A DNA stretch of 64,000 nt, from positions 160,001 to 224,000 of the forward strand of contig JBCBZT010000003.1 in assembly GCA_039815185.1 (NCBI GenBank), written 5' to 3'. Source of the stretch: Cyanobacteria bacterium P01_A01_bin.123. Its GTDB lineage: Bacteria > Cyanobacteriota > Cyanobacteriia > Phormidesmidales > Phormidesmidaceae. The translations under genes and the position numbers were made by a program. The notes below the pieces were generated by a model. That model was not told the origin of the DNA, did not search any database, and saw nothing but the letters and a program-made list of their open reading frames with translations. Each line of letters starts with the position of its first letter. The stretch's first letter is position 1. Positions 41,470 through 53,878 of the stretch are shown one piece after another.

Positions 41470-44139
41470 TTAGTCAACAGCGGTGACGAAACGCACTAAA
41501 CCGAGTTCGTCGACACCCACTGTCCCCACATCGACAAAGGCCGCCCCTAAAGTGCCAGCATTCCCACTAGGGCAAGCGCCATTGGCGGTTAGTGCCGCTA
41601 GAAATGCACCTTCATCACCATCCGATGCATTGGTCTGGTTAACAGCTGCACCTAAAGCCGCCGCAGGGCTGGCATAAGCAACCCCTTGTCCAGCGGCAAA
41701 CCCATCGGTCACAAACGAGGAATTGGCAGGCACCGGGTCACAAATGGAAACATCAGTAAACGCAGCGGCGGTACGATTAATGAAGTAGATTGTGTACTCG
41801 ACCTGGTCTCCACTGGTGAGTTCATTCAGGGGTGCGGTAGGTGTTGTCACCCCCACAAAGGCATTATCCGGTGGGCTACCTGTAGGGGCAGCAAAGTTTG
41901 TTGTTACCCCACCGCGTACAATCCGCGTGATTCGCTTGATCAGCTCTAGACCAAAGGTGATGGGGGTAGGGGTGTCGTTGTTGGGGCTGGTTGGGTCTTC
42001 GTTGGCATTGTCAACCACATTGCCACCATCGTTAGAGTTATCGGTTAATGGAATGCCTGTATTGCCAATTTCACCTCCCCCCACTGCAATATTTTCATAG
42101 TTCAGTAAGTTGCCTGGGGTAACCCGAATGGTGAATTGAACTGTGATAAATGAACGAGTAACACTCCCGGTTGTTAAAATTGCTGGGCCTAGGGTTGCAG
42201 CACCCAGTAAATTAGTATCTCCGGTACCATCAAAGCCAGCATTCGCGACGGCGGTCGTTTGTGTCAATCCCGATGCAGCAGTAGGGCCACTTGTAGCCGT
42301 CACTGTTGGGGCAACTTGAACATTAAAGGCCGTTGCTCCAGCAAAGGTTGTGGCTACATTATCGGTCAGCGTCACATTGGTGAGGGCAATCGTGCTGAGA
42401 TTTTCAATGGTGACTTCAAAGAGAACATCAAATTGAGTGGCCCCCACTGGTGTGATTGAAATAACTTGTTTGGCGACCCCCAGCCCAGCGGTAGTCGTTA
42501 TAAGGCCGCTGAGCTCCGAGGTTGACAGCGTCGCTGGGTTTGTTGCGGTTGATGTGACAACATCCCCCAAAGTTAAGGCTCCTGGTCTCGTATTGGTGAA
42601 GGTAAAGCGATTGGTTGTGTCTTCGCCTTGAGCAGATTGATAGGCGGGCGGAATCCCGGGGCCGTAGCTACCTGTACCTGCTGTGACATCGTTGCCGCCG
42701 CCTTCAGTTTCTGTTAGCAAGAAAGTTTCTGCTTCACCGAAGTTGTTGGGATCAGGTGTCGTAACGGTAAACAGCTCAATAATTGCGCCAGGGCGGGCAA
42801 AGCCCGTGAGAATGAGTTGGCTATTGTCATTTGTGATGATAGCTGCCTCATAGACGGGGAAATTAAAGCGTTCGTTAGGGTCACCGTCAGCATCACCATT
42901 GTCGTTTAGGGTGATGCCGTCGCCGGTATTGCCACCATTCAAATCGATAGCCAACCTACCCGCTGCATTGACCGTGGCCCCTGTCGCTGCGTTACGGCCA
43001 TTTTCAAAAATGCTGTTTTGGGTAATGCGATTACCAGTGCCCTGGCTCACAACGATGCCGTCGTTGACGTTTGCCGTAATCGTGTTGTTAGAAATCAAAT
43101 TATTATTGCCGTTGCGGATACCAATACCCGCGTCTTGATCCGCTCCTGGCCCCAAGCCATTGGCTCGAATTGTGTTACCAGAAATCGTATTGTTATCGTT
43201 GGCAAAAGTACGGAGGTCAATGCCGTAAGCCGCATTGCACTCAATCAGGTTATTGGTAATCGTGATATTGTTAGCCGCTACTAACTCAATGCCATCTGCT
43301 AGTTGATCGGCAGCGCCCCCCCTATTGGTGCCGTTTGCACCACACATAAAGCTTGCCATTGTATTAGTCGGCACACCACCCGCGTTGACGCGAACTATAT
43401 TGTTGTCAATCGTGACGCCAGACGCCCCAAAACGGACACTAATACCGCCGTTATCATTGTTTTGAACGATACTGTTGCGAACGACAGAGCCTGCAACGCT
43501 TTGGTTGCCGAAATTAGCCTGAGCAGGTGTAGGACTGTTGTCAGTGGTGCCATTGAAGAAAATCCCAGAACCGTTTCTATCAGCGCCGATACTGTCTTGA
43601 ACAATTAAGGTATCGAGGGTTGTATTTGGTGCTTCTACCCGGATAATGGCACCACTGCCAACCCCGCCGCCTTGCCCCACGCTTTCAATCGTCAAATTTT
43701 GAATGGTGGAACCAGCCGCTGTTGCTGCGATCAGAAAACCAGGGCCACCATTGCCTTGATAGTCGATGATGGTGGTCGTCTGGCTGCCACCGACAATCGT
43801 CATCGGCGTGCTGATGGTGGGGAGTGGGGTTCCCCCCACGTTAATCGTGGTTGCGGCAGGGATATTGATTGTATCTAGGCCAGCATCACCGGCGATACAT
43901 TCATTGACTGCTGTATCGGTGTTGGCTGCTTGCATTGCTTCTCGTAGCGTACATTGACCATCAGCAGCAACGGTATCTCCAGCCCCTGTCACAGTAATCG
44001 TTGCTGCTAGAGAAGGCGTGGCACAACCCAAAATGCTTACTAGCGCAGTGCTGAAAAGCAACCCAGTTTTTATGGCTAGGGGTGACCAACAGGATTGAAA
44101 CGTTGAGGTCATATCATTGAGTGATCGCAGAGGTTTCAC
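41470..44139 (-). CDS. Secreted CSLREA-type / right-handed beta-helix / DUF11 adhesin-like protein (paralogue 2)
   Basis: Signal peptide (PSLA-A), DGQCTLREA, Asn-rich beta-helix, Ig-like domain and two DUF11-like domains. GTG 44139 aligns with the paralogue's ATG (ORF extends to 44208). Confidence 0.85.
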   Translation of the reverse strand: MKPLRSLNDMTSTFQSCWSPLAIKTGLLFSTALVSILGCATPSLAATITVTGAGDTVAADGQCTLREAMQAANTDTAVNECIAGDAGLDTINIPAATTINVGGTPLPTISTPMTIVGGSQTTTIIDYQGNGGPGFLIAATAAGSTIQNLTIESVGQGGGVGSGAIIRVEAPNTTLDTLIVQDSIGADRNGSGIFFNGTTDNSPTPAQANFGNQSVAGSVVRNSIVQNNDNGGISVRFGASGVTIDNNIVRVNAGGVPTNTMASFMCGANGTNRGGAADQLADGIELVAANNITITNNLIECNAAYGIDLRTFANDNNTISGNTIRANGLGPGADQDAGIGIRNGNNNLISNNTITANVNDGIVVSQGTGNRITQNSIFENGRNAATGATVNAAGRLAIDLNGGNTGDGITLNDNGDADGDPNERFNFPVYEAAIITNDNSQLILTGFARPGAIIELFTVTTPDPNNFGEAETFLLTETEGGGNDVTAGTGSYGPGIPPAYQSAQGEDTTNRFTFTNTRPGALTLGDVVTSTATNPATLSTSELSGLITTTAGLGVAKQVISITPVGATQFDVLFEVTIENLSTIALTNVTLTDNVATTFAGATAFNVQVAPTVTATSGPTAASGLTQTTAVANAGFDGTGDTNLLGAATLGPAILTTGSVTRSFITVQFTIRVTPGNLLNYENIAVGGGEIGNTGIPLTDNSNDGGNVVDNANEDPTSPNNDTPTPITFGLELIKRITRIVRGGVTTNFAAPTGSPPDNAFVGVTTPTAPLNELTSGDQVEYTIYFINRTAAAFTDVSICDPVPANSSFVTDGFAAGQGVAYASPAAALGAAVNQTNASDGDEGAFLAALTANGACPSGNAGTLGAAFVDVGTVGVDELGLVRFVTAVD

Positions 44140-44284
44140 ATCACACCGAAACAAGGTACAGGTTACTCCAGTTAGAAAACGGTTACTTAACTGCAAGCAT
44201 GATACCAAGGTTACGGACTGCTCCAGAGATGATTCTCCTACGGCGATCGCAGGCCAAATCTATTGCAGACCGAACATGATCAGC

Positions 44285-46945
44285 TTAATCAACCGTGGTA
44301 ACAAACCGCACAAAACCCCGTTCATCGACGTCTACCGTACCGACATCGACGAATGCAGCCCCTAAAGCCCCGGCATTGCTGTTAGGACAAGCCCCATTAG
44401 CCACTAGGGCCGCCAGAAACTCACCAGCATCAGCATCAGCGGCATTGCTTTGATTGATGCCTGCCCCCAAAGCTGCCGCCGGAACCGCATAGGAAATGCC
44501 CTCACCTTCGGCAAACCCATTCGGCGCAAAGGAGCTATTCTCAGGCACTGGATCACAAATGGAAACATCAGTAATAGCAGCGCCTGTGCGGTTGATGAAA
44601 TAGATTGTGTACTCTACCTGATTACCACTGACGAGCGAGTCTAAGGGGGCAGGCGGCGTTTCTACCCCAACAAAACTATCGTCAGGGGGATTGCCCGTCA
44701 CCGTGGTGAAGTTTGTCTCTATGCCATCTTGAACCACCCGTGTAATCCGTTTGATCAACTCTAGTCCAAAGGTAATGGGGGTAGGGGTGTTGTTATTAGG
44801 ACTGGTTGGATCTTCATTCGGATTATCAACGACAGTGCCGCCATCATTAGATTCATCTCTCAACGGAACGTCGGTATCGCCGATATTACCTGTCCCTACG
44901 GCAATATTTTCGTAATTCAGTAAAGTTCCTGGCGTGACTCGAACGACATATTCAACTTCGATAAACGAGGGCGTATCCGATCTTAAAATCCGGGGCCCCA
45001 GAGTTGCCCCAGCTGCGAGCAGATTGACATCACCACCGGGGTTTACGCCGTCAAAGTTTGTATTTTCTGCCGCGGCTGTACCATCTCCGTTTGTGTCTGT
45101 GATATCAATGGCTGAGGCTGGTGGTGTGGTTAACACTTGGAAGCTGTCCGCACCAGCGAAGGTTGTGGATAGGTCATCCGTGATTTGAACATTGGTTAGG
45201 GTAACTGAGCTCAAGTTCTCAACTCTGAGCCTAAACCTTACATCAAACACACCTGCCGACACTGGGGTCACAGACACAACTTGTTTTGCGACGCCAATCC
45301 CAGCGGTGGTAGTAATCAGACCGCTGAGCTCAGAGGTTGAGAGTGTGACAGGGTTAGTGGCCGTTGACGTCACCACATCACCGATGGCCAAGGCGCCTGG
45401 TCTGGTGTTGGTAGAGGTAAAGCGATTCGTCGTATCTTGTCCTTGAGCGGTTTGGTATCCAGGCGGAATGTCTGGACCATAACTCCCTGTCCCCGGTGTG
45501 ACATCGTTTGCACCGCCTTCAGTTTCTGTCAACAAGAAGGTTTGCGCTTCCCCAAAATTGTTGGGGTCAGGGTTAGCAACCGTAAATAGCTCAATAATGG
45601 CGCCTGGGCGGGTAAAGCCAGTAAGAATGAGTTGGCTATTGTCATCGGTGATAATGGCCGCTTCAAAAACCGGGAAGTTGAAGCGTTCGTTGGGGCCACC
45701 ATCGGCATCACCATTGTCATTCAACGTGACGCCATCCCCAGTATCGCCAACGCCTAAATCGATGGCTAACCTATCAGCTGCATTGACAATGCCCCCTGTG
45801 GTTGGGTTACGACCATTCTCAAAAATGCTGTTTTGGGTAATGCGATTCCCGATACCTTGGCTGACTACGATACCGTCGTTGACGTTTGCAGTAATGGTGT
45901 TGGTCGAGATCGTATTATCATTACCGTTTCGCACACCAATACCCGCGTCTTGGTCCGTTGACACCCCGAGACCATTGGCTCGAATTGTGTTGTTGGAAAT
46001 CGTATTATTATCGTTGGCAAAAGTCCGAAGATCGATGCCGTAGCTGGCGTTACACTCAATTGTGTTGTTTGTAACTGTGATGTTGTTGGCCCCGACTAGC
46101 TCAATACCATCCGCCCGTGGATCGGCGCTGCCCCCCCGATTGGTCCCGTTTACGGCACATCCAAAGGTCCCTATTGTGTTGGTCGGTACGGTGCCTCCGT
46201 TGACGCGAACCAGGTTGTTGTCAATGGTGACCCCAGACGCACCGAAGCGGACAGTAATCCCCCCGTTGTCGTTGTTTTGAACAATGCTGTTGCGAATGAC
46301 AGACCCTGAAACATCTCTGCTTCCAAATGTTGCTGCAGGGGGCGTGGGATCGGTGCTAGTCGTGCCATTGAAAAAGACTCCGGAGCCATTTCTATCGGGG
46401 CCAAAGCTGTCCTGAACAATTAAGGTGTCCAGAGTTGTGTTTGGTGCTTCTACCCGAATAATGGCACCCGAACCGGCAACAGCGTCTGGGCCAACGCTTT
46501 GAATCGTTAGATTTTGAACGGTGGAGTTTGCTGCTGTGATTAGTAAGCCAGGCCCCCCATTGCCGTTGTAGTCGATGATGGTGGTGTCGCGACTGCCCCC
46601 ATTAATGGTCATCTGCGTACTGATGGTGGGTAGGGGTGTGCCGCCTACATTAATCGTGGTTGCGGCGGGGATATTGATGGTGTCAAATCCGTCACCAGCC
46701 GTACACTCATTCACGGCTGCATCAGTATTGGCTGCCTGAATGGCTTCTCGCAGCGTGCAAATACCATCAGCGGCAACGGTGTCTCCAGCCCCTGTCACAT
46801 TAATGGTTGCCGCGAAGGCAGGTGCAGCGTGTCCCAAAACGCCCAATAGCGCAGTGCCAAAAACTAAACCAGTTCGGTTAGCTAAGGGTAACGAGCAGGA
46901 TTGAACCGTTGAGACGATATCGTTGAGCGATTTCAGGGATTTCAT
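44285..46945 (-). CDS. Secreted CSLREA-type / right-handed beta-helix / DUF11 adhesin-like protein (paralogue 1)
   Basis: Signal peptide (PAFA-A), DGICTLREA; same architecture as, and co-linear with, 41470-44139. Start is ATG 46945 or GTG 46960. Confidence 0.85.
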   Translation of the reverse strand: MKSLKSLNDIVSTVQSCSLPLANRTGLVFGTALLGVLGHAAPAFAATINVTGAGDTVAADGICTLREAIQAANTDAAVNECTAGDGFDTINIPAATTINVGGTPLPTISTQMTINGGSRDTTIIDYNGNGGPGLLITAANSTVQNLTIQSVGPDAVAGSGAIIRVEAPNTTLDTLIVQDSFGPDRNGSGVFFNGTTSTDPTPPAATFGSRDVSGSVIRNSIVQNNDNGGITVRFGASGVTIDNNLVRVNGGTVPTNTIGTFGCAVNGTNRGGSADPRADGIELVGANNITVTNNTIECNASYGIDLRTFANDNNTISNNTIRANGLGVSTDQDAGIGVRNGNDNTISTNTITANVNDGIVVSQGIGNRITQNSIFENGRNPTTGGIVNAADRLAIDLGVGDTGDGVTLNDNGDADGGPNERFNFPVFEAAIITDDNSQLILTGFTRPGAIIELFTVANPDPNNFGEAQTFLLTETEGGANDVTPGTGSYGPDIPPGYQTAQGQDTTNRFTSTNTRPGALAIGDVVTSTATNPVTLSTSELSGLITTTAGIGVAKQVVSVTPVSAGVFDVRFRLRVENLSSVTLTNVQITDDLSTTFAGADSFQVLTTPPASAIDITDTNGDGTAAAENTNFDGVNPGGDVNLLAAGATLGPRILRSDTPSFIEVEYVVRVTPGTLLNYENIAVGTGNIGDTDVPLRDESNDGGTVVDNPNEDPTSPNNNTPTPITFGLELIKRITRVVQDGIETNFTTVTGNPPDDSFVGVETPPAPLDSLVSGNQVEYTIYFINRTGAAITDVSICDPVPENSSFAPNGFAEGEGISYAVPAAALGAGINQSNAADADAGEFLAALVANGACPNSNAGALGAAFVDVGTVDVDERGFVRFVTTVD

Positions 46946-46969
46946 AGCACGCTGAGACACAAGACAGAG

Positions 46970-49042
46970 TTATTCCAGTTGCAGATCGGTTTCTTGACGT
47001 TCAAAGATAATGTCGAGGCCACGGGTGTCTTCAAAGATGACTTCCACGCGGCGATCGCGGGCGTAATCGAGCCGAGTGCTGCCAGTGGTTGCCCGTTGGC
47101 TTTCGCCGAAGGGCCGAATCCGCATTCGTTCAGGTTCAATGCCCTGCTGCAGTAGATAGTTACGGGCAGACAGAGCCCGGCGCTCACTCAAGGCTTGGTT
47201 GTACGCATCGCTGGCACGGGGATCGGTGTGGCCTTGCAGTTCGATCACAATAAAGGGATATTCCAACAGAACCGCTGCAATCTGATCGAGCACATTGGCA
47301 CTCTCTGGGCTGATGTTGGAGCGATCGAGGGCGAAGTGAATATTGCGCGGCACTTGCAGTTGCAATGGCTCCGGGGGGGGCGCTTCCGAGGGCGGTTCCG
47401 GGGGGGGATCAGCTGCAAAGCAGCTGGGAGGCGAGATTGGTTCGAGCGCCAAGTCAGGAATCGGTTCGCCCATAACCCGAACGGTTGTCACCGGGGCGGG
47501 TTCGGAGGTGCCATATTGGGGATCAGTGGCGATCGCACTGAGGCGAGTCCCTGCCGGTACGGACAATGTGGTCGCAAACTGGCCAGCATCATCGGCAGTA
47601 ACCGTCGCGAGGAATTTTGCCAGGGGACTGTAAACCCTCTGATCTTCCACCACCTGGTAGATGTCTACCTCTGATCCTGGATCCGCAGTGCCTTGTAAGG
47701 TAACTTCACCCTGTTCTAAGGGAAATTCATAGGCCATAAATTGGGGGGCATTGATTGCCCCATTGCCCGTGTCCGTGCGGCGGTTGTGAGAATTGCGCGG
47801 TGGATTGGGACCATCGGCCTCTTGATAAGCCCTGACCTCGCTAGCGTCAGCCGCATTCAAGTCAATGCTGAGTCCATCGAGCTGCAAAAACTGATTGTTG
47901 CGGATAATGTTGCGATCGCTGCGGGGAAAAGCCGTTACCGTCACCCCAGGTCCAGGCTGATAGCCGATCAGATTATTCAAAACCTGATGGTCATTGCCCA
48001 TGAGGTAAACGGCTGCCCGTTCGAATCGTCGCCCGTTGAACTTGATCGAATTGTCTTGAATCAGAACTGCGCCTTCGGGTTTGAACAGATAAATGCCGCT
48101 ACCGTCGTTGCCACACAGCAGGTTATTCTCCAGAACCGCATCGGTCACGATTCCTTCTAACCGAATTGCATCGGGCATCCCGGCTATGCCATTGCCAATA
48201 ATGGTATTGCCAGTCACCATTAACTCCTCAGCCCGCACCCCCGTGATAATGGCGCTACCATCGTGGTGCCGAATCTGGTTTTGACGGATGGTAACCCCAG
48301 TGGCATTAAAGACGGATACTCCAAAGGTTGAAGTCTCCTCGGGAAAGCGATTTTCTGGCGGTAATCCCAGCCAATTTTGTTCAATCACCACATCTTTCGT
48401 TGCGGCCTCAGACGTGCCGAAATCAAAAAAGCTGAGCGGGGGCGACAATGGGCTAGCGTCCGCTGGGTGTGGAGCATTACTAATGAAGATGTCGCTGGGG
48501 GGAGTGGTTTGTGTCGATCGCGGCGCTGCTCGAAACCCATAGATACTCAATCCGCGCACGGTTACCCCATCACCAATGATGGTCAGCCCACGAAAGACTT
48601 CCTGTCCAGCTGCTGGGGTCAACGCCACTACAGGTACGGGTACGGGCACTTGGGCCTGGGGTGGTTCAGCATTGCCGTATCCCGGCTGAGTTGTGCCGTC
48701 AATTAGGGTATTGGGCGTTTCAATTGCGGGCAGTAAGGTTTCAACTGCAATCGTGGTTTGAGCTAAGGGTAGATTGAACTGGATCTGCGGTGCTCCAGTC
48801 GGGGAAGGGGCAATCAGGGCTTGCTCCGCTGGGCTCAGCGCCGCCGGCGTTAGAGTCCCATTAGCCAGCTCAATCGCTTCTCGTAGGGTGAGGATCCCAT
48901 CGGCAGTTACTGGGCCATCTAGATCACTGTTGACCGTCACGATATACGGTTCAAAAGTTTGCTCGTTAGGGGTTTGGGCGATCGCTGGGAGAGCGAGTAA
49001 ATAAATAAAAGGTGCTGACAGTATCGATATCTGACGAATCAT
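46970..49042 (-). CDS. Beta-helix protein with C-terminal OmpA-like peptidoglycan-binding domain
   Basis: Signal peptide, LTLREAI, beta-helix, Pro linker, HFALD..GHTD..YNQALSERRA..RDRRVE. Confidence 0.9.
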   Translation of the reverse strand: MIRQISILSAPFIYLLALPAIAQTPNEQTFEPYIVTVNSDLDGPVTADGILTLREAIELANGTLTPAALSPAEQALIAPSPTGAPQIQFNLPLAQTTIAVETLLPAIETPNTLIDGTTQPGYGNAEPPQAQVPVPVPVVALTPAAGQEVFRGLTIIGDGVTVRGLSIYGFRAAPRSTQTTPPSDIFISNAPHPADASPLSPPLSFFDFGTSEAATKDVVIEQNWLGLPPENRFPEETSTFGVSVFNATGVTIRQNQIRHHDGSAIITGVRAEELMVTGNTIIGNGIAGMPDAIRLEGIVTDAVLENNLLCGNDGSGIYLFKPEGAVLIQDNSIKFNGRRFERAAVYLMGNDHQVLNNLIGYQPGPGVTVTAFPRSDRNIIRNNQFLQLDGLSIDLNAADASEVRAYQEADGPNPPRNSHNRRTDTGNGAINAPQFMAYEFPLEQGEVTLQGTADPGSEVDIYQVVEDQRVYSPLAKFLATVTADDAGQFATTLSVPAGTRLSAIATDPQYGTSEPAPVTTVRVMGEPIPDLALEPISPPSCFAADPPPEPPSEAPPPEPLQLQVPRNIHFALDRSNISPESANVLDQIAAVLLEYPFIVIELQGHTDPRASDAYNQALSERRALSARNYLLQQGIEPERMRIRPFGESQRATTGSTRLDYARDRRVEVIFEDTRGLDIIFERQETDLQLE

Positions 49043-52000
49043 TAGACCTCACCCCCTGTTTCGATGTCGTTTGGTGCCGCGTTAGCAGGTTGATCGGGTT
49101 CAACATAGGAGTCTTGCTGCTGCTGCGGTGACACCATCTGCAATCCAAATCCATTCAATAGTTCATTTACCTTGAAGGTGACGCCCAAATAAACCCCGCT
49201 ACCCGAGCGATACGCGTTGTCACCTACAAAGCTGCCTTCATTTGCGCCGCCAAAGCTGTAACCTACCCCTAATCGCAGATCAGGCGTCAAGTAATATCCC
49301 GCTTCTAGGGCAAATCCAGTTTCGCTATAGCCAACGGTGGGTTGACCAATCCAGCGGGCTCCTGCTGTGACATCCCAACGGTAGGCAAAGCGATAGGTTG
49401 CCCGCATTTGGGCAAAATGAATGGAATTGGAAAATCCAAAGTCGTCAGCTAGATTGACATTGCTGTAACGCAAGGCATACTTGCCATAAAGTTCCCACTG
49501 CCAGCTGGGGGATAAGATGCCCTCTAATGCCAACGTATGATCTACGGCGTCGTTGCTGGAGCCAATCAGAATGCTATCGGGTGTGGTGCTGGGATTATTG
49601 CGATACTCGTAGCTCAATAATCCGTTGAAAATATCGCTGCTTGGATCGCGGTAGGCCAGCCCCAACCTGAGATTAATCGAATTACCAAGGTTGCCCGTGA
49701 TGGTCTGGTTTGCAAAGTTAGCCTGCTCGTAGCGAAACAGGGTCGTCAACGACCGGGTAATGCGGCCCCCAGCGGCAGCCGTAAACACGGTGTTGTCGCC
49801 ACTATCAGAATCTCGATGTTCAAATCGTGCACTGGCCTGAAAATCTGGGTTGTCTGTATACTCCAAGCCAATACTATAAGCGGTGCTGGACTGGAGTCCC
49901 AACGCAGAAGCGTTTTGACCCACAGCAAAGGGTTGGGCAAACTGCTCTCCCCCCCCGGTTAGGTTGAACGCGTCGCCAAAGATGCGTTCTAGGCCAAAGT
50001 TCGCTCGCAACCCAGGTGCTAACACCATGCGGTGATTCAACCCAATGGCTCCCTGCCCCGTGATGCCGTTAAATCCTCCCAACAGGGAATACCGATTTGT
50101 CAACGTTGTGTTGTCGTCTAAGGCGTAATCGATCAGGCTATCCAGGCGAGTGACTGAGCCTGGGTTAGCCCCGCCGGTAAACTGTTGTGCCAGCCGCAGG
50201 GTCATACCGGGTTGTACGGCCCATTCTAGGCCTACGGTTTGGCGATCGGGATAAAGTGAATCGCCGGTGCCCAGGTTTAACTCACTCTGGGCCAAAAAAC
50301 TCAAATCTCCTGTGATTGGCAGATTCAGCCGAGAGACTACTTGATTAGAGTCAGTATTGAGATTGGTGATGCGATCATCGCGACCGCGAAAGATCCAATC
50401 AACGCCTAGGGTAGTGGCACCGAACCGTTGCTGAATGCCAATCTGGCCTGTGGTTAAGGTGTTATCGACTGAACTCCCCTGAATGGCCTGTTGCCCGGGC
50501 GATAGCAAGGCTCCGGCAGAGGTCAATACTGCTGGGGATGAGCCAACGTTTGTTTCTTGGTCGATTAAACCTCGAAGCAGGGTGCTGGGGCCAATGCGAG
50601 CCGCGATCTCGGCTCCCCAGCGCGTTTGTCCGGGACGAAAGCTAGAGGTGTAGTCGTTTTGAAACTCAGGTGCGGCAGATTGCAGATAGGCGCGACCAAA
50701 TACATTAGGCAGAACGTTGCCATTAAAGGCCAATCGAAAGGCATTTCCTGAAGTCGTGGCCCCCCCGCTAAACGAATCTGATCGGGCCCATTCCCCAACG
50801 AACGTCCCAATGCTGCCAATCGGCAACTGGAGATCAACGCCGTATAGATTGGAGTCAAAATCTCCCTGGTCTGCGTGGAGAAACGTAGCCCCAACCCAGC
50901 TATTGAGATCGGGGGTGAAGGCATACTGCAATCGCCCTGCATACAATTCACCGCCAAATTCACCGCCGTCTAGTTGGTAGGTGACAACAATCCGACGCAC
51001 CAGCGTCTCGCCGAAGGGATCGATCTCTGTGGCATAAATCGGTTGACGAAATAGCAGCGTGCCTCGGTCATAATCAATGTCATAGTCAGCTCCCCGATAA
51101 AGCTCTGTACGCTCAACTACCGTCCCGGGGCGATTAATCTCCTCAGTCTCGATAAAAACATTTTCACTCCCGCGCAGCACTGCCCGCCGAGATAAGAAAT
51201 AAAAGCCACTGGTGCCGTCGGGTGCAATCGTATCGCGCTGCAACTGCTGTAAGTTGTTGCCGTACATGGCCGTGACTTGCAACCCATTGGCAAAACTATA
51301 GTTGCCCTTAAAGCCGTGGAGTTGCAGTGTAGTCGCGGTAAAGGTTTGAGAAGACCGAGCAAATTCTGGAGTGCTGTAATCGCCCCACATCAGGTAGTCA
51401 GGTTCAGCCCCTGGCAAGATAGAGTCTCTCTGGAGGCGCAAATAAAGACTGTCGGCAGACGGGGTCAAAAATTCTGAGGTCGAGCTGTCGCCATAAACCG
51501 GATAGGTTTGGTCACAAGCTTGGAGATCATTGAGGATACCGTTATCCCCTCCACAACGCTCGTTTAAGTTTCGCTCGCTCGTGTATGCTCCGGTAATTTG
51601 CCAATCTCCCAGGGTGCCAATGCCAAACAGGGAAATATCAGGGTCAAACTCCGTTCCGTTGTCAAGTAGATCCGGATTGAGAAAGTCTCCAAAGCTCCCC
51701 CAAAAATCAGTTCCGGCTTGCCCCAACCGCAAATGCACCACACCCGAAACTAGAGATGGCCTCAAATCCGTGACAAATTGAACCTCGGTGTAGGCTGCGA
51801 CCTCTGGATAAGGGTCGGGATCGATCGCTGGATCAAGTCCGCGCACTTGATGGCCATTAACGGCTGCCCGAATCTGAACGGTCTGAGCGTCTAGATCAGA
51901 ACGCAGCAGCGTCTCAAACTCCCCACGACGGGCCAGAATTTGAAATCCTGCGAGATCGTTGTCATAGTCTGTCTGGACAAATACTCCAGCACTACTGGTT

Positions 52001-52791
52001 AGCGTGACAATGATATCTCGATCAAGTACGACGCCATCGACATCGAGCACTTGTCCGCTCAGTCTGACCACGGCTCGTCCATTGGCTGGAATAATGCCGT
52101 TACCAATGGGCTCAATTTGGAGTGTTGGCCCTTGATTTTCCTCCAGCAAGTCCTCTTCTGACAGACGCTCTAAGGGATCTTCGGGAGCATCGGGGCGTAA
52201 GGCAGGGGGCGGCACAAATTCGTCCATGGGGGTACCCCCATCTCCATCAAACTGAGCCATCAGTTCAGCTTGATGGGGGGATATTGGAGCGGCTTGAAAA
52301 TCAAGGGTTGACGCTTCTAGGACGCCGGAAAAAGCTAGGTTATTTCCCTCAAGCGCCAATGTTTCAGAGTCAGTTGAGTGCGATCGCGCCGGGGAAACAT
52401 GAGCATCTGAGTTGCTGACTGGGTCATTAACTGGATCGTTAACGAGGGTATTTGCCTCAATTAAGTCTCCAGTCTGTAAGACAGCGGCGTCAGTGGCCAA
52501 GCCGTCAGCTGTTTCCCTTATTCTGGGGAGATTAAGTGCAGGTGAAACATGGGTCGTCGATCCAACATTCTCATCGGCTGACGGGCTCGCCTCAGGGGAA
52601 ACTGATTGGGGTTGCAGGTCCTGATTGACCATTGGCTGCTGATCATCGCTTGGCAGCGGCGCAGCGTCATCAACCGCCACGGACAGGTTCGATGCAGCCG
52701 CTTCCCCATATGCAGGAAATGCTGCACTTAAAACTCCAGCGATAACGGCCAGTGCCTTAATTGCCAGTAAAGTTTGCTGTGAGCTTGCCAT
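49042..52791 (-). CDS. Large outer-membrane beta-barrel protein with N-terminal disordered region and Ig-like domain
   Basis: Signal peptide (PAYG-E), IPANGR..Ig-like segment, YPVYGDSS, a long run of amphipathic strands ending GVYLGVTFK. Stop overlaps the next ATG (TAATG). Start is ATG 52791 or GTG 52881. Confidence 0.8.
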   Translation of the reverse strand: MASSQQTLLAIKALAVIAGVLSAAFPAYGEAAASNLSVAVDDAAPLPSDDQQPMVNQDLQPQSVSPEASPSADENVGSTTHVSPALNLPRIRETADGLATDAAVLQTGDLIEANTLVNDPVNDPVSNSDAHVSPARSHSTDSETLALEGNNLAFSGVLEASTLDFQAAPISPHQAELMAQFDGDGGTPMDEFVPPPALRPDAPEDPLERLSEEDLLEENQGPTLQIEPIGNGIIPANGRAVVRLSGQVLDVDGVVLDRDIIVTLTSSAGVFVQTDYDNDLAGFQILARRGEFETLLRSDLDAQTVQIRAAVNGHQVRGLDPAIDPDPYPEVAAYTEVQFVTDLRPSLVSGVVHLRLGQAGTDFWGSFGDFLNPDLLDNGTEFDPDISLFGIGTLGDWQITGAYTSERNLNERCGGDNGILNDLQACDQTYPVYGDSSTSEFLTPSADSLYLRLQRDSILPGAEPDYLMWGDYSTPEFARSSQTFTATTLQLHGFKGNYSFANGLQVTAMYGNNLQQLQRDTIAPDGTSGFYFLSRRAVLRGSENVFIETEEINRPGTVVERTELYRGADYDIDYDRGTLLFRQPIYATEIDPFGETLVRRIVVTYQLDGGEFGGELYAGRLQYAFTPDLNSWVGATFLHADQGDFDSNLYGVDLQLPIGSIGTFVGEWARSDSFSGGATTSGNAFRLAFNGNVLPNVFGRAYLQSAAPEFQNDYTSSFRPGQTRWGAEIAARIGPSTLLRGLIDQETNVGSSPAVLTSAGALLSPGQQAIQGSSVDNTLTTGQIGIQQRFGATTLGVDWIFRGRDDRITNLNTDSNQVVSRLNLPITGDLSFLAQSELNLGTGDSLYPDRQTVGLEWAVQPGMTLRLAQQFTGGANPGSVTRLDSLIDYALDDNTTLTNRYSLLGGFNGITGQGAIGLNHRMVLAPGLRANFGLERIFGDAFNLTGGGEQFAQPFAVGQNASALGLQSSTAYSIGLEYTDNPDFQASARFEHRDSDSGDNTVFTAAAGGRITRSLTTLFRYEQANFANQTITGNLGNSINLRLGLAYRDPSSDIFNGLLSYEYRNNPSTTPDSILIGSSNDAVDHTLALEGILSPSWQWELYGKYALRYSNVNLADDFGFSNSIHFAQMRATYRFAYRWDVTAGARWIGQPTVGYSETGFALEAGYYLTPDLRLGVGYSFGGANEGSFVGDNAYRSGSGVYLGVTFKVNELLNGFGLQMVSPQQQQDSYVEPDQPANAAPNDIETGGEV

Positions 52792-52846
52792 AGTGCGTCT
52801 GTTTCTTAACTTCCCTGATTGTTTGGTCGATACTTCCCTGCGAACA

Positions 52847-53878
52847 CTATTGACCTGGCCCAACAACCTGGCCCTCACCAAAGGTAGGGGTCACTCCAAA
52901 GTTCATACGTACCAATCCACCTGGCTCAAGCTGAACCAGGCGCGACTGGCTGTTTTGGTCAAGACGATACAAGTTAGGCGCTAGGGTATAACCCGGCAAG
53001 CTGGTTAAATCCAACGTGCCGACTCGATACCCGCGATAGACATTTGCTACGGAAAATAAGCCCTCGGGGTCGGTAATGATGCGATTGCCATCATCCATAA
53101 AGACAACAGCATTGGGGACTCCTTCTTCTCCAGGTTGCTGTTCACCATCGAAATTTTTATCAACAAAGACCCGTCCGACAACCGTGCCACAATCGGCAAC
53201 GATCCCCGGACGAATCAGCAGTTGAAACTGAGAAGTAACGGTTGCAAATCCCGGAGCGGAGGCCTGGGCAGTGTTCTCCCCTGACCCCCGAACTGAATCA
53301 GGAGTGAGCAATACAGCATAGACAATATTGATCGATTCACCCGCGGCCAAGGTTGGAAACTCAAGGGTAATCTGACTGTTATCGAAGCTTACTGAAGTCG
53401 GTGCGGTAGGCGTTGCCTGGACTGAATCAGGCACATACAGCAGACCTAGGGGTAACTGATCAACAATGGTCAGCGGTGTAGCCGCAGTAGTCGTGCTGTT
53501 GTTGGTTACCAGCAGTCTGTACAGCACCACATCCCCAGGCTCTGCAGCAGCTCGATCTGCGGTCTTAACAATCGATAATCCTTGCTCCTGGGCAGCTGTC
53601 CCCGATACCTGATAAGAGGTGGTGTTTGAGGTGCCAGTTTGCACATTACCACCAGAGGTGAATTGAGCCGATGCTTGGTTAGTCACCGTTACCTGTGCCT
53701 GGGAGGCAGTCGGCAAAATCAGCCCACCATGAAGTGCAAGGCTGGTAAACAAAGCCAACAAAAAAATCATCCAGCGTCTAAGAAGACGCCTACCTGTAGC
53801 GAATATCGGTTTCAACACCCACAACTCCCACACACTCGGTAGATAACGTAATATCACCGAAAAATCAGATAAAGTCAA
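52847..53878 (-). CDS. Secreted DUF11 + SdrD-B/Cna-B-like protein
   Basis: Signal peptide (ASQA-Q), LSIVKTADRAAAEPGD.V.Y (DUF11), GRVFVDKNFDGEQQPGE.GVPNA (SdrD-B-like). True start is probably downstream (~53818 or 53770). Confidence 0.85.
   Translation of the reverse strand: MTLSDFSVILRYLPSVWELWVLKPIFATGRRLLRRWMIFLLALFTSLALHGGLILPTASQAQVTVTNQASAQFTSGGNVQTGTSNTTSYQVSGTAAQEQGLSIVKTADRAAAEPGDVVLYRLLVTNNSTTTAATPLTIVDQLPLGLLYVPDSVQATPTAPTSVSFDNSQITLEFPTLAAGESINIVYAVLLTPDSVRGSGENTAQASAPGFATVTSQFQLLIRPGIVADCGTVVGRVFVDKNFDGEQQPGEEGVPNAVVFMDDGNRIITDPEGLFSVANVYRGYRVGTLDLTSLPGYTLAPNLYRLDQNSQSRLVQLEPGGLVRMNFGVTPTFGEGQVVGPGQ

Follow-up and report, generated by a model that had tools for sequence, protein, structure and literature searches.

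Isopeptide-forming domains of gram-positive pilins and adhesins have been split by engineering into a tag and a catcher, as in SpyTag/SpyCatcher and SnoopTag/DogTag. In DUF11, a domain that has been renamed CLIPPER, Lys and Asn are joined by an intramolecular isopeptide bond whose formation is catalyzed by an Asp (Costa et al., Protein Sci 2025, PMC12617251; PDB 9IFR); sections 2.4 and 3 of that article treat only bonds within one chain, and the words "donor" and "operon" do not occur in its main text. Bonds between chains are known from BsaA of Clostridium perfringens, where "donor-strand exchange and lock" ends in an autocatalytic intermolecular bond that is supported by mutants (bioRxiv 10.1101/2024.11.04.621531). 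For the archaeal thread protein Saci_0406, donor-strand complementation has been described together with a proposed intermolecular isopeptide bond and a donor-only cap protein (PMC9715654). Here, we analyze a five-gene operon of Cyanobacteria bacterium P01_A01_bin.123, located in a stretch of 64,000 nucleotides (GenBank assembly GCA_039815185.1, contig JBCBZT010000003.1, positions 160,001 to 224,000) that is called the window below and in which positions are counted. The two adhesins of this operon end in a CLIPPER-like domain (the acceptor) that stops before its Asn strand, and the mature N terminus of an adaptor protein encoded in the same operon carries a hairpin with an Asn (the donor). 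We consider it likely that these proteins form a two-piece fibrillar adhesin, in which a split CLIPPER domain is completed by the hairpin and sealed by a spontaneous Lys-Asn bond.

Acceptor domain and donor hairpin

The genes of the window and the named matches of the adaptor suggest a filamentous cyanobacterium close to Leptolyngbyaceae/Nodosilinea. The operon lies on the minus strand and runs from the adaptor through a 1279-residue protein and a beta-helix/OmpA protein to adhesin 1 and adhesin 2 (residue numbers start at the first codon of the respective open reading frame, ORF, as listed). Adhesin 1 (44285-46960) and adhesin 2 (41470-44208, likely start ATG 44112) share 75% identity and consist of a signal peptide, a CSLREA domain, a beta-helix, an internal CLIPPER-like domain, and the C-terminal acceptor; Pfam and NCBIfam profiles recognize the CSLREA domain, the beta-helix, and the DUF11-type repeat. 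The internal domains hold a complete triad (K559/D595/N685 in adhesin 1 and K580/D616/N706 in adhesin 2). In the last domains, the Lys and Asp are found as K737 (44752-44750) and D803 (44554-44552) of adhesin 1 (acceptor at 44288-44779, the chain used for folding) and as K758 (41937-41935) and D824 (41739-41737) of adhesin 2 (acceptor at 41473-41964), after which the chain stops right behind the last hydrophobic strand, before an Asn strand could follow, so that Lys, Asp, and Asn do not come together within one chain. Both adhesins thus terminate on a beta-strand and have no membrane anchor. The acceptors exceed a curated cut-off only for TIGR01451 (28 and 26.4 bits against 24); for PF01345 one adhesin scores 16.9 and the other is unlisted. 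The ORF translations place the motifs of the adaptor and of both adhesins where the first-pass annotation of the sequence had read them.

The truncated ending is a constant feature of the family. In the best 80 of 581 related loci found, 43 loci contain one full-length match each to the last-domain profile, and all 43 matches end 0-4 residues before the stop codon, which rules out that the truncation is an assembly or sequencing artefact or a product of chance. The remaining loci have no full-length match, and in several of them the adhesin extends beyond the fetched DNA. A search of 1.8 billion proteins gave 14 whole-profile matches among the 150 listed, each ending no more than 3 residues from the C terminus, and 136 partial matches in proteins with tandem DUF11 repeats. 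Both last-domain profiles were built from C-terminal ends and are biased in that direction, but even so no full-length internal match was obtained. The N-terminal parts of the related adhesins differ widely.

Lys and Asp are conserved in 43 of 43 acceptors, even though the acceptors are highly divergent (mean column identity of 36%). An alignment of 36 sequences shows no invariant Asn inside the acceptor, and an intramolecular bond within this domain is rejected on that ground. Likewise, none of the 43 adhesins has an N-terminal donor of its own, so completion of the last domain by the same adhesin is rejected as well. The catalytic Asp is immediately preceded by a Cys in 43/43 acceptors (C802 in adhesin 1, C823 in adhesin 2), and a second Cys (C858 in adhesin 1) is present in all 36 sequences of the curated alignment, its loop contacting donor strand 1 in the complex model described below. 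This pair is probably a disulfide that braces the groove; it is absent from the acceptors of the subunit proteins introduced in the next section.

Folded alone with AlphaFold2, the acceptor is predicted with high confidence (predicted local distance difference test, pLDDT, 91; predicted template modeling score, pTM, 0.87). Against 9IFR it aligns over residues 18-109 of 18-140 (Z 6.4, root-mean-square deviation, rmsd, 2.7, 90 aligned residues), and the bonded Asn806, which corresponds to number 118 by an offset taken from the alignment and from Table 1 of Costa et al. (PMC12617251), lies beyond the aligned end. With Asn numbers from the same table, the alignments to other solved CnaA-like domains stop at 307 in RrgB (Asn318), 1462 in antigen I/II (Asn1469), and 680 in GBS104 (Asn692). 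Hence, the acceptor follows these folds only until 7-12 residues ahead of the Asn, and two strands are missing. It had been proposed that the last adhesin domain ends before the Asn strand and lacks a single strand; the first part holds, while fold comparison and models raise the number to two, matching a beta-hairpin at about residues 62-92 of the adaptor. It had also been put forward that a C-terminal domain complete and stable alone would speak against the idea: the acceptor does fold confidently in isolation, but the fold is an incomplete one. By sequence, no relative of the acceptor was detected among solved structures, and its model has no match with Z of at least 8 among 48,161 chains, which does not make the fold new.

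The adaptor (52847-53878, likely start at 53818 or 53770) consists of a signal peptide, the donor hairpin (53603-53695), a complete CLIPPER domain (53210-53578; K105/D140/N202), and an SdrD_B-like C-terminal domain. In Pfam and NCBIfam it matches DUF11, with 40.2 bits for PF01345 well over the curated cut-off of 24.6, and weakly SdrD_B. Its mature chain is predicted to start at Q62 (53695), and the donor Asn, N67 (53680-53678), is the predicted isopeptide Asn. The earlier assignment of the missing Asn strand to this mature N terminus is upheld by the conservation of the Asn in 80 of 80 adaptors. The adaptor domain aligns with the entire length of 9IFR (Z 14.9, rmsd 2.9, 122 of 123 residues), so it is a complete CnaA-like sandwich in one chain with the hairpin left over. 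In a model from a 30-sequence alignment (pLDDT 79), the two-stranded hairpin stands separate from the CLIPPER domain, and packing of the hairpin onto the adaptor's own domain is disfavored by the models, in which this domain needs no further strand and the hairpin falls outside the alignment. The first residue of the mature adaptor is Gln in 74 of 80 relatives; conversion to pyroglutamate could shield the donor end. As a separate observation, the Thermus hypothetical protein TTHA1873 (PDB 7WRK/7WWO) also matches the complete adaptor domain with Z of about 15.

The two pieces were then modeled together, using the 164 residues of the acceptor and residues 26-60 of the adaptor in its 307-residue form. 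The complex scored 0.68, and the best of three controls 0.02; the mark applied is reached by 116 of 157 solved pairs and 2 of 215 mismatched pairs and is a rough guide here because our own alignments were used. The runs agreed in at least 96% of contacts, with a partner pLDDT of at least 78. Donor strand 1 pairs with the Asp strand of the acceptor, and the interface holds acceptor K10 and D76 together with donor N31 (model numbering). The insertion foreseen in the first-pass annotation, with Lys, Asp, and Asn brought together, is reproduced as far as the hairpin and the presence of all three residues in the interface are concerned. In the listed pairs, D76-A33 and K10-A33 are among the best contacts, and the Lys-Asn pair does not appear in the best 25. 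Asn31, two residues from Ala33, would point to the inward face of the modeled complex.

Related operons and gene fusions

The two remaining genes of the window operon probably concern anchoring. The large secreted protein of 1279 residues (49042-52881) matches no family in Pfam or NCBIfam; its look-alikes in the Atlas carry the automatic name outer membrane protein, and a crude alternation score gives a weak barrel signal near the C terminus. It may be an outer-membrane barrel that serves as export channel or anchor. The next protein (46970-49042) combines a beta-helix and an Ig-like domain with an OmpA-family peptidoglycan-binding domain (Pfam OmpA 63.9 bits, Beta_helix, Big_6) and would act as a cell wall tether; its gene is optional in related operons and is missing from several loci. 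A tail of about 20 residues past its OmpA domain (46970-47050, minus strand) is conserved and similar even in a protein from an Acinetobacter plasmid; a role as docking strand toward the large protein is possible.

A longer form of the operon occurs in the same genome (G000:C49:45232-61508, locus L081). It encodes a DUF7925 subunit with both donor and acceptor, a small acceptor with Gln, an adaptor, a large protein, an OmpA protein, and a 1628-residue acceptor-tailed adhesin with SdrD_B repeats; compared with the window operon, the subunit and the small acceptor-only protein are the added genes. The subunit (860 residues) starts with a donor hairpin and ends with an acceptor. Among 120 relatives, all 118 that cover the donor position keep its Asn, all 120 keep the Lys, and 116 keep the Asp. 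In the small protein (185 residues), by contrast, the Asp site is Gln in 120/120 close relatives. Of 12 diverse examples, 10 have another residue in place of the Asp (Gln, Gly, Ala, or Leu), and the other 2, which keep the Asp, have lost the Lys; three of the Gly assignments rest on the alignment register next to an adjacent acid or amide. The triad is thus broken in 12 of 12, by five different substitutions. This wider system in the second operon, with its presumed polymerizing subunit and dead acceptor and with several adhesins per adaptor, was missed in the first-pass annotation.

Of the 151 genomes sampled from the phylum, 17 carry an acceptor (E ≤1e-8), and all of these belong to the 22 genomes with an adaptor. 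Strong matches to subunit and small protein occur together in 12 genomes, and 5 genomes have only the short form, as in the window, with adaptor and adhesins but without strong matches to subunit or small protein. No subunit or small protein is encoded in any of the 80 window-type loci, 60 of which include at least 4 kb of upstream DNA. The long form was seen in twelve fetched loci, five of them from another class of the phylum and several without OmpA, and a single adaptor can have three adhesins behind it. In two genomes, orphan acceptor-tailed adhesins lie among unrelated genes with no adaptor nearby (L120:7212-9599 and L123:5825-7780), which suggests a repertoire acting in trans. The long-operon adaptors (L081:4365-5873 and L107-L113) differ in the second donor strand from those of short operons and from subunits, the Ser-Asn pair often being changed; this is a possible partner code.

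Gene fusions in Proteobacteria join such modules in single chains. On an Acinetobacter plasmid, donor, adaptor, and barrel are fused into one protein; the plasmid also encodes the small protein, an OmpA protein, and an acceptor-tailed adhesin, together with a subunit gene that is disrupted in the record. In Sinorhizobium and Roseovarius (both on plasmids) and in Vibrio, a giant single-chain adhesin ends in the adaptor module (E 7.6e-29, 3e-21, and 5e-14, respectively) directly ahead of a barrel-like gene. In the Sinorhizobium protein, the equivalent of the hairpin is the end of the preceding complete repeat, so that the window adhesin and adaptor correspond to such a chain cut within one domain. 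Loci L115, L116, L117, and L118 from alpha- and gammaproteobacteria combine a giant single-chain CLIPPER adhesin with a barrel-like gene that matches no family, in some cases accompanied by OmpA. The two genes may represent a pair for secretion or anchoring that has not been described.

The contig that contains the window has at its end an ORF of tandem DUF11 repeats (G000:C92:246998-250009) with a tail that we take to resemble the C-terminal domain of Bacteroidota gliding-motility/type IX proteins. It may be foreign DNA or a mis-join, as the contamination of the assembly is given as 6%.

Proposed mechanism and alternative explanations

In the proposed mechanism, each protein would be exported by its signal peptide, which is read from the sequence. 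The last domain of the adhesin would be a CLIPPER/CnaA-like beta-sandwich without its last two strands, and the mature N-terminal hairpin of the adaptor would insert and complete it, bringing the adhesin Lys and Asp together with the adaptor Asn in the hydrophobic core. The Lys-Asn isopeptide bond would then form spontaneously, with loss of ammonia and without an enzyme. The C-terminal module of the adaptor would hold the assembly on the large outer-membrane protein, as the gene fusions suggest, the OmpA protein would link it to the wall, and one donor could serve several interchangeable adhesins. In the long form, the donor-and-acceptor subunit would polymerize between adaptor and adhesin, and the small, chemically dead acceptor might reversibly protect free hairpins as a chaperone or cap.

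The two steps differ in how firmly they can be held. Strand complementation, which the first-pass annotation had proposed, gains support from fold comparison, conservation, the controlled complex model, gene fusions, and co-occurrence, and insertion of the hairpin into the acceptor is very likely on these models. The covalent bond is well motivated by an invariant triad that is split over two genes, by the broken triad of the small protein, and by the BsaA precedent, and the intermolecular Lys-Asn isopeptide is, in our judgment, the probable outcome of the known CLIPPER chemistry. Several points weigh against this picture. The 25 best-listed contacts of the complex omit the Lys-Asn pair, and likeness to solved CnaA-like structures can be enough for a split domain to pass this test, so that the pass shows fit and not binding in the cell. 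The acceptor is predicted to be well folded alone and may be stable unpaired, and its Z values of 6-7.5 are middling and by themselves indicate only a common sandwich fold. Because of relatedness among the 151 genomes and among the homologues, the counts do not represent independent observations, and two more donors in the genome (three in all) mean that the partner of the window adhesins is not unique.

The foremost alternative is complementation without a covalent bond, of the kind seen in chaperone-usher or TasA fibers, with Lys, Asp, and Asn kept for packing and hydrogen bonds and left unreacted. It fits all structural evidence equally well, the absence of a Lys-Asn contact among the 25 best-listed pairs is in its favor, and BsaA N35A oligomers are stable in sodium dodecyl sulfate (SDS) without the bond (10.1101/2024.11.04.621531). 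We nevertheless regard it as rather unlikely: the triad stays unchanged among acceptors that otherwise diverge strongly, the five different triad-breaking substitutions in the small acceptor-only protein are best explained if the bond forms elsewhere, and the bond of the intact CLIPPER domain has been demonstrated crystallographically (PMC12617251).

Two further readings are less likely still. The truncated domain could be a self-standing C-terminal sorting signal that is read by a barrel or by the adaptor surface, with another partner for the hairpin. Such a signal would resemble the C-terminal domain of type IX secretion. Confident folding of the acceptor in isolation is consistent with this explanation, as is the invariably terminal position of the domain on unrelated passenger proteins, some of them encoded by orphan genes at a distance from the operon; it leaves the invariant Lys and Asp, the invariant donor Asn, the fusion junction, and the controlled complex pass unexplained, and it appears quite improbable as a replacement for the split-domain reading, with which it can coexist. 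Least probable of the three is that complementation and bond are real but that the window adhesins are mainly captured by the subunit donor of the second operon, tipping its fiber, with the window adaptor playing a minor role or having a different partner. The three donors of the genome favor it, and the complex test is also passed by near relatives of true partners. Against it stand the 80 window-type loci without subunit or small protein and the 5 genomes with adaptor and adhesins alone; in 3 of these genomes the only donor match is the adaptor hairpin, although the 37-position donor profile is insensitive and missed even the adaptor in the other 2.

If the split-domain reading is correct, diderm bacteria attach adhesins covalently without a sortase, by a domain that does its own chemistry, and adhesin heads are swappable by gene duplication or by scattered acceptor-tailed genes. 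A role would then be given to a block of hypothetical genes in cyanobacteria, in a sister class of the phylum, and on an Acinetobacter plasmid, including the family-less large outer-membrane protein. Many natural Tag/Catcher pairs would become available for protein engineering, the minimal pair being small (a 164-residue domain and a 35-residue peptide). A more far-reaching reading is evenly balanced in our view: the system may be one form of an undescribed, widespread class of diderm surface fiber made from split CLIPPER domains, with a donor-only base on a new outer-membrane protein, self-crosslinking head-to-tail subunits, interchangeable acceptor-tailed adhesins at the tip (some from orphan genes), and a dead acceptor that times assembly as a reverse chaperone. 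Such a covalently locked, sortase-free gram-negative pilus would come with a natural Tag/Catcher library.

Comparison with known systems

The principle of a donor strand combined with an autocatalytic isopeptide bond is not new, as it is known in BsaA and proposed for archaeal threads. With CLIPPER/DUF11 (PF01345, 9IFR), the window domains share the CnaA-like fold, the order Lys, Asp, Asn, and the occurrence in stalks of diderm fibrillar adhesins; the difference lies in the cut ahead of the Asn strand, which distributes one domain over two proteins. Like SpyTag/SpyCatcher-type pairs, the system divides an isopeptide domain in two, but the division is natural and genetically modular. BsaA resembles it at the level of sequence and model in bearing the Asn on an N-terminal donor and the Lys and catalytic acid on an acceptor. 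BsaA belongs to the TasA family and is characterized by a single strand, a Glu catalyst, homopolymer formation, SipW dependence, and a gram-positive host, whereas the present system is predicted to have a CLIPPER fold, a two-strand hairpin, an Asp catalyst, heterotypic ligation of adhesin to anchor, and a diderm host with an outer-membrane partner. No TasA-family or SipW match at E ≤1 was obtained from Pfam or NCBIfam in the five window proteins, nor from Pfam in four second-operon proteins, the search being confined to these. In Saci_0406, the bond joins Asn to the N-terminal alpha-amine of subunit n+2 and is not a Lys-Asn bond, and the protein is archaeal with a type-1-pilin-like fold.

Chaperone-usher pili (FimH/FimA/FimD) offer the closest parallel in layout, with an acceptor-only tip adhesin, a donor-and-acceptor subunit, a donor-only base, and a large outer-membrane protein (PMC11821415). 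In both systems an incomplete Ig fold would be completed by an N-terminal extension of the neighbor, here with two strands according to the models. The putative helper would act in the opposite sense to PapD, being an acceptor that covers donors, and the covalent lock is predicted only here. No operon protein matches the profile of a PapC/FimD usher or a PapD chaperone; the large protein may still bear a remote structural resemblance. As for sortase pili, none of the five operon proteins, to which the search was limited, belongs to a sortase family, and the adhesins lack a C-terminal sorting signal or membrane anchor.

Several other reports were considered as earlier descriptions and set aside. 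CryoSeek TLP-1, CPR Pam pili, haloarchaeal tafi, and F-ENA concern donor-strand fibers or mention DUF11, with no split CLIPPER domain in the text available for them; the accessible part of a paper on DUF11 signal peptides in PCC 11901 gives no mechanism; and a link to Anabaena all3289 was not established. Beyond these, neither a split CLIPPER domain nor this operon was found described in a literature search that excluded most subscription journals and bioRxiv supplements. On the features tested, the system stands outside the BsaA/TasA, archaeal-thread, chaperone-usher, and sortase families, yet it would work like them.

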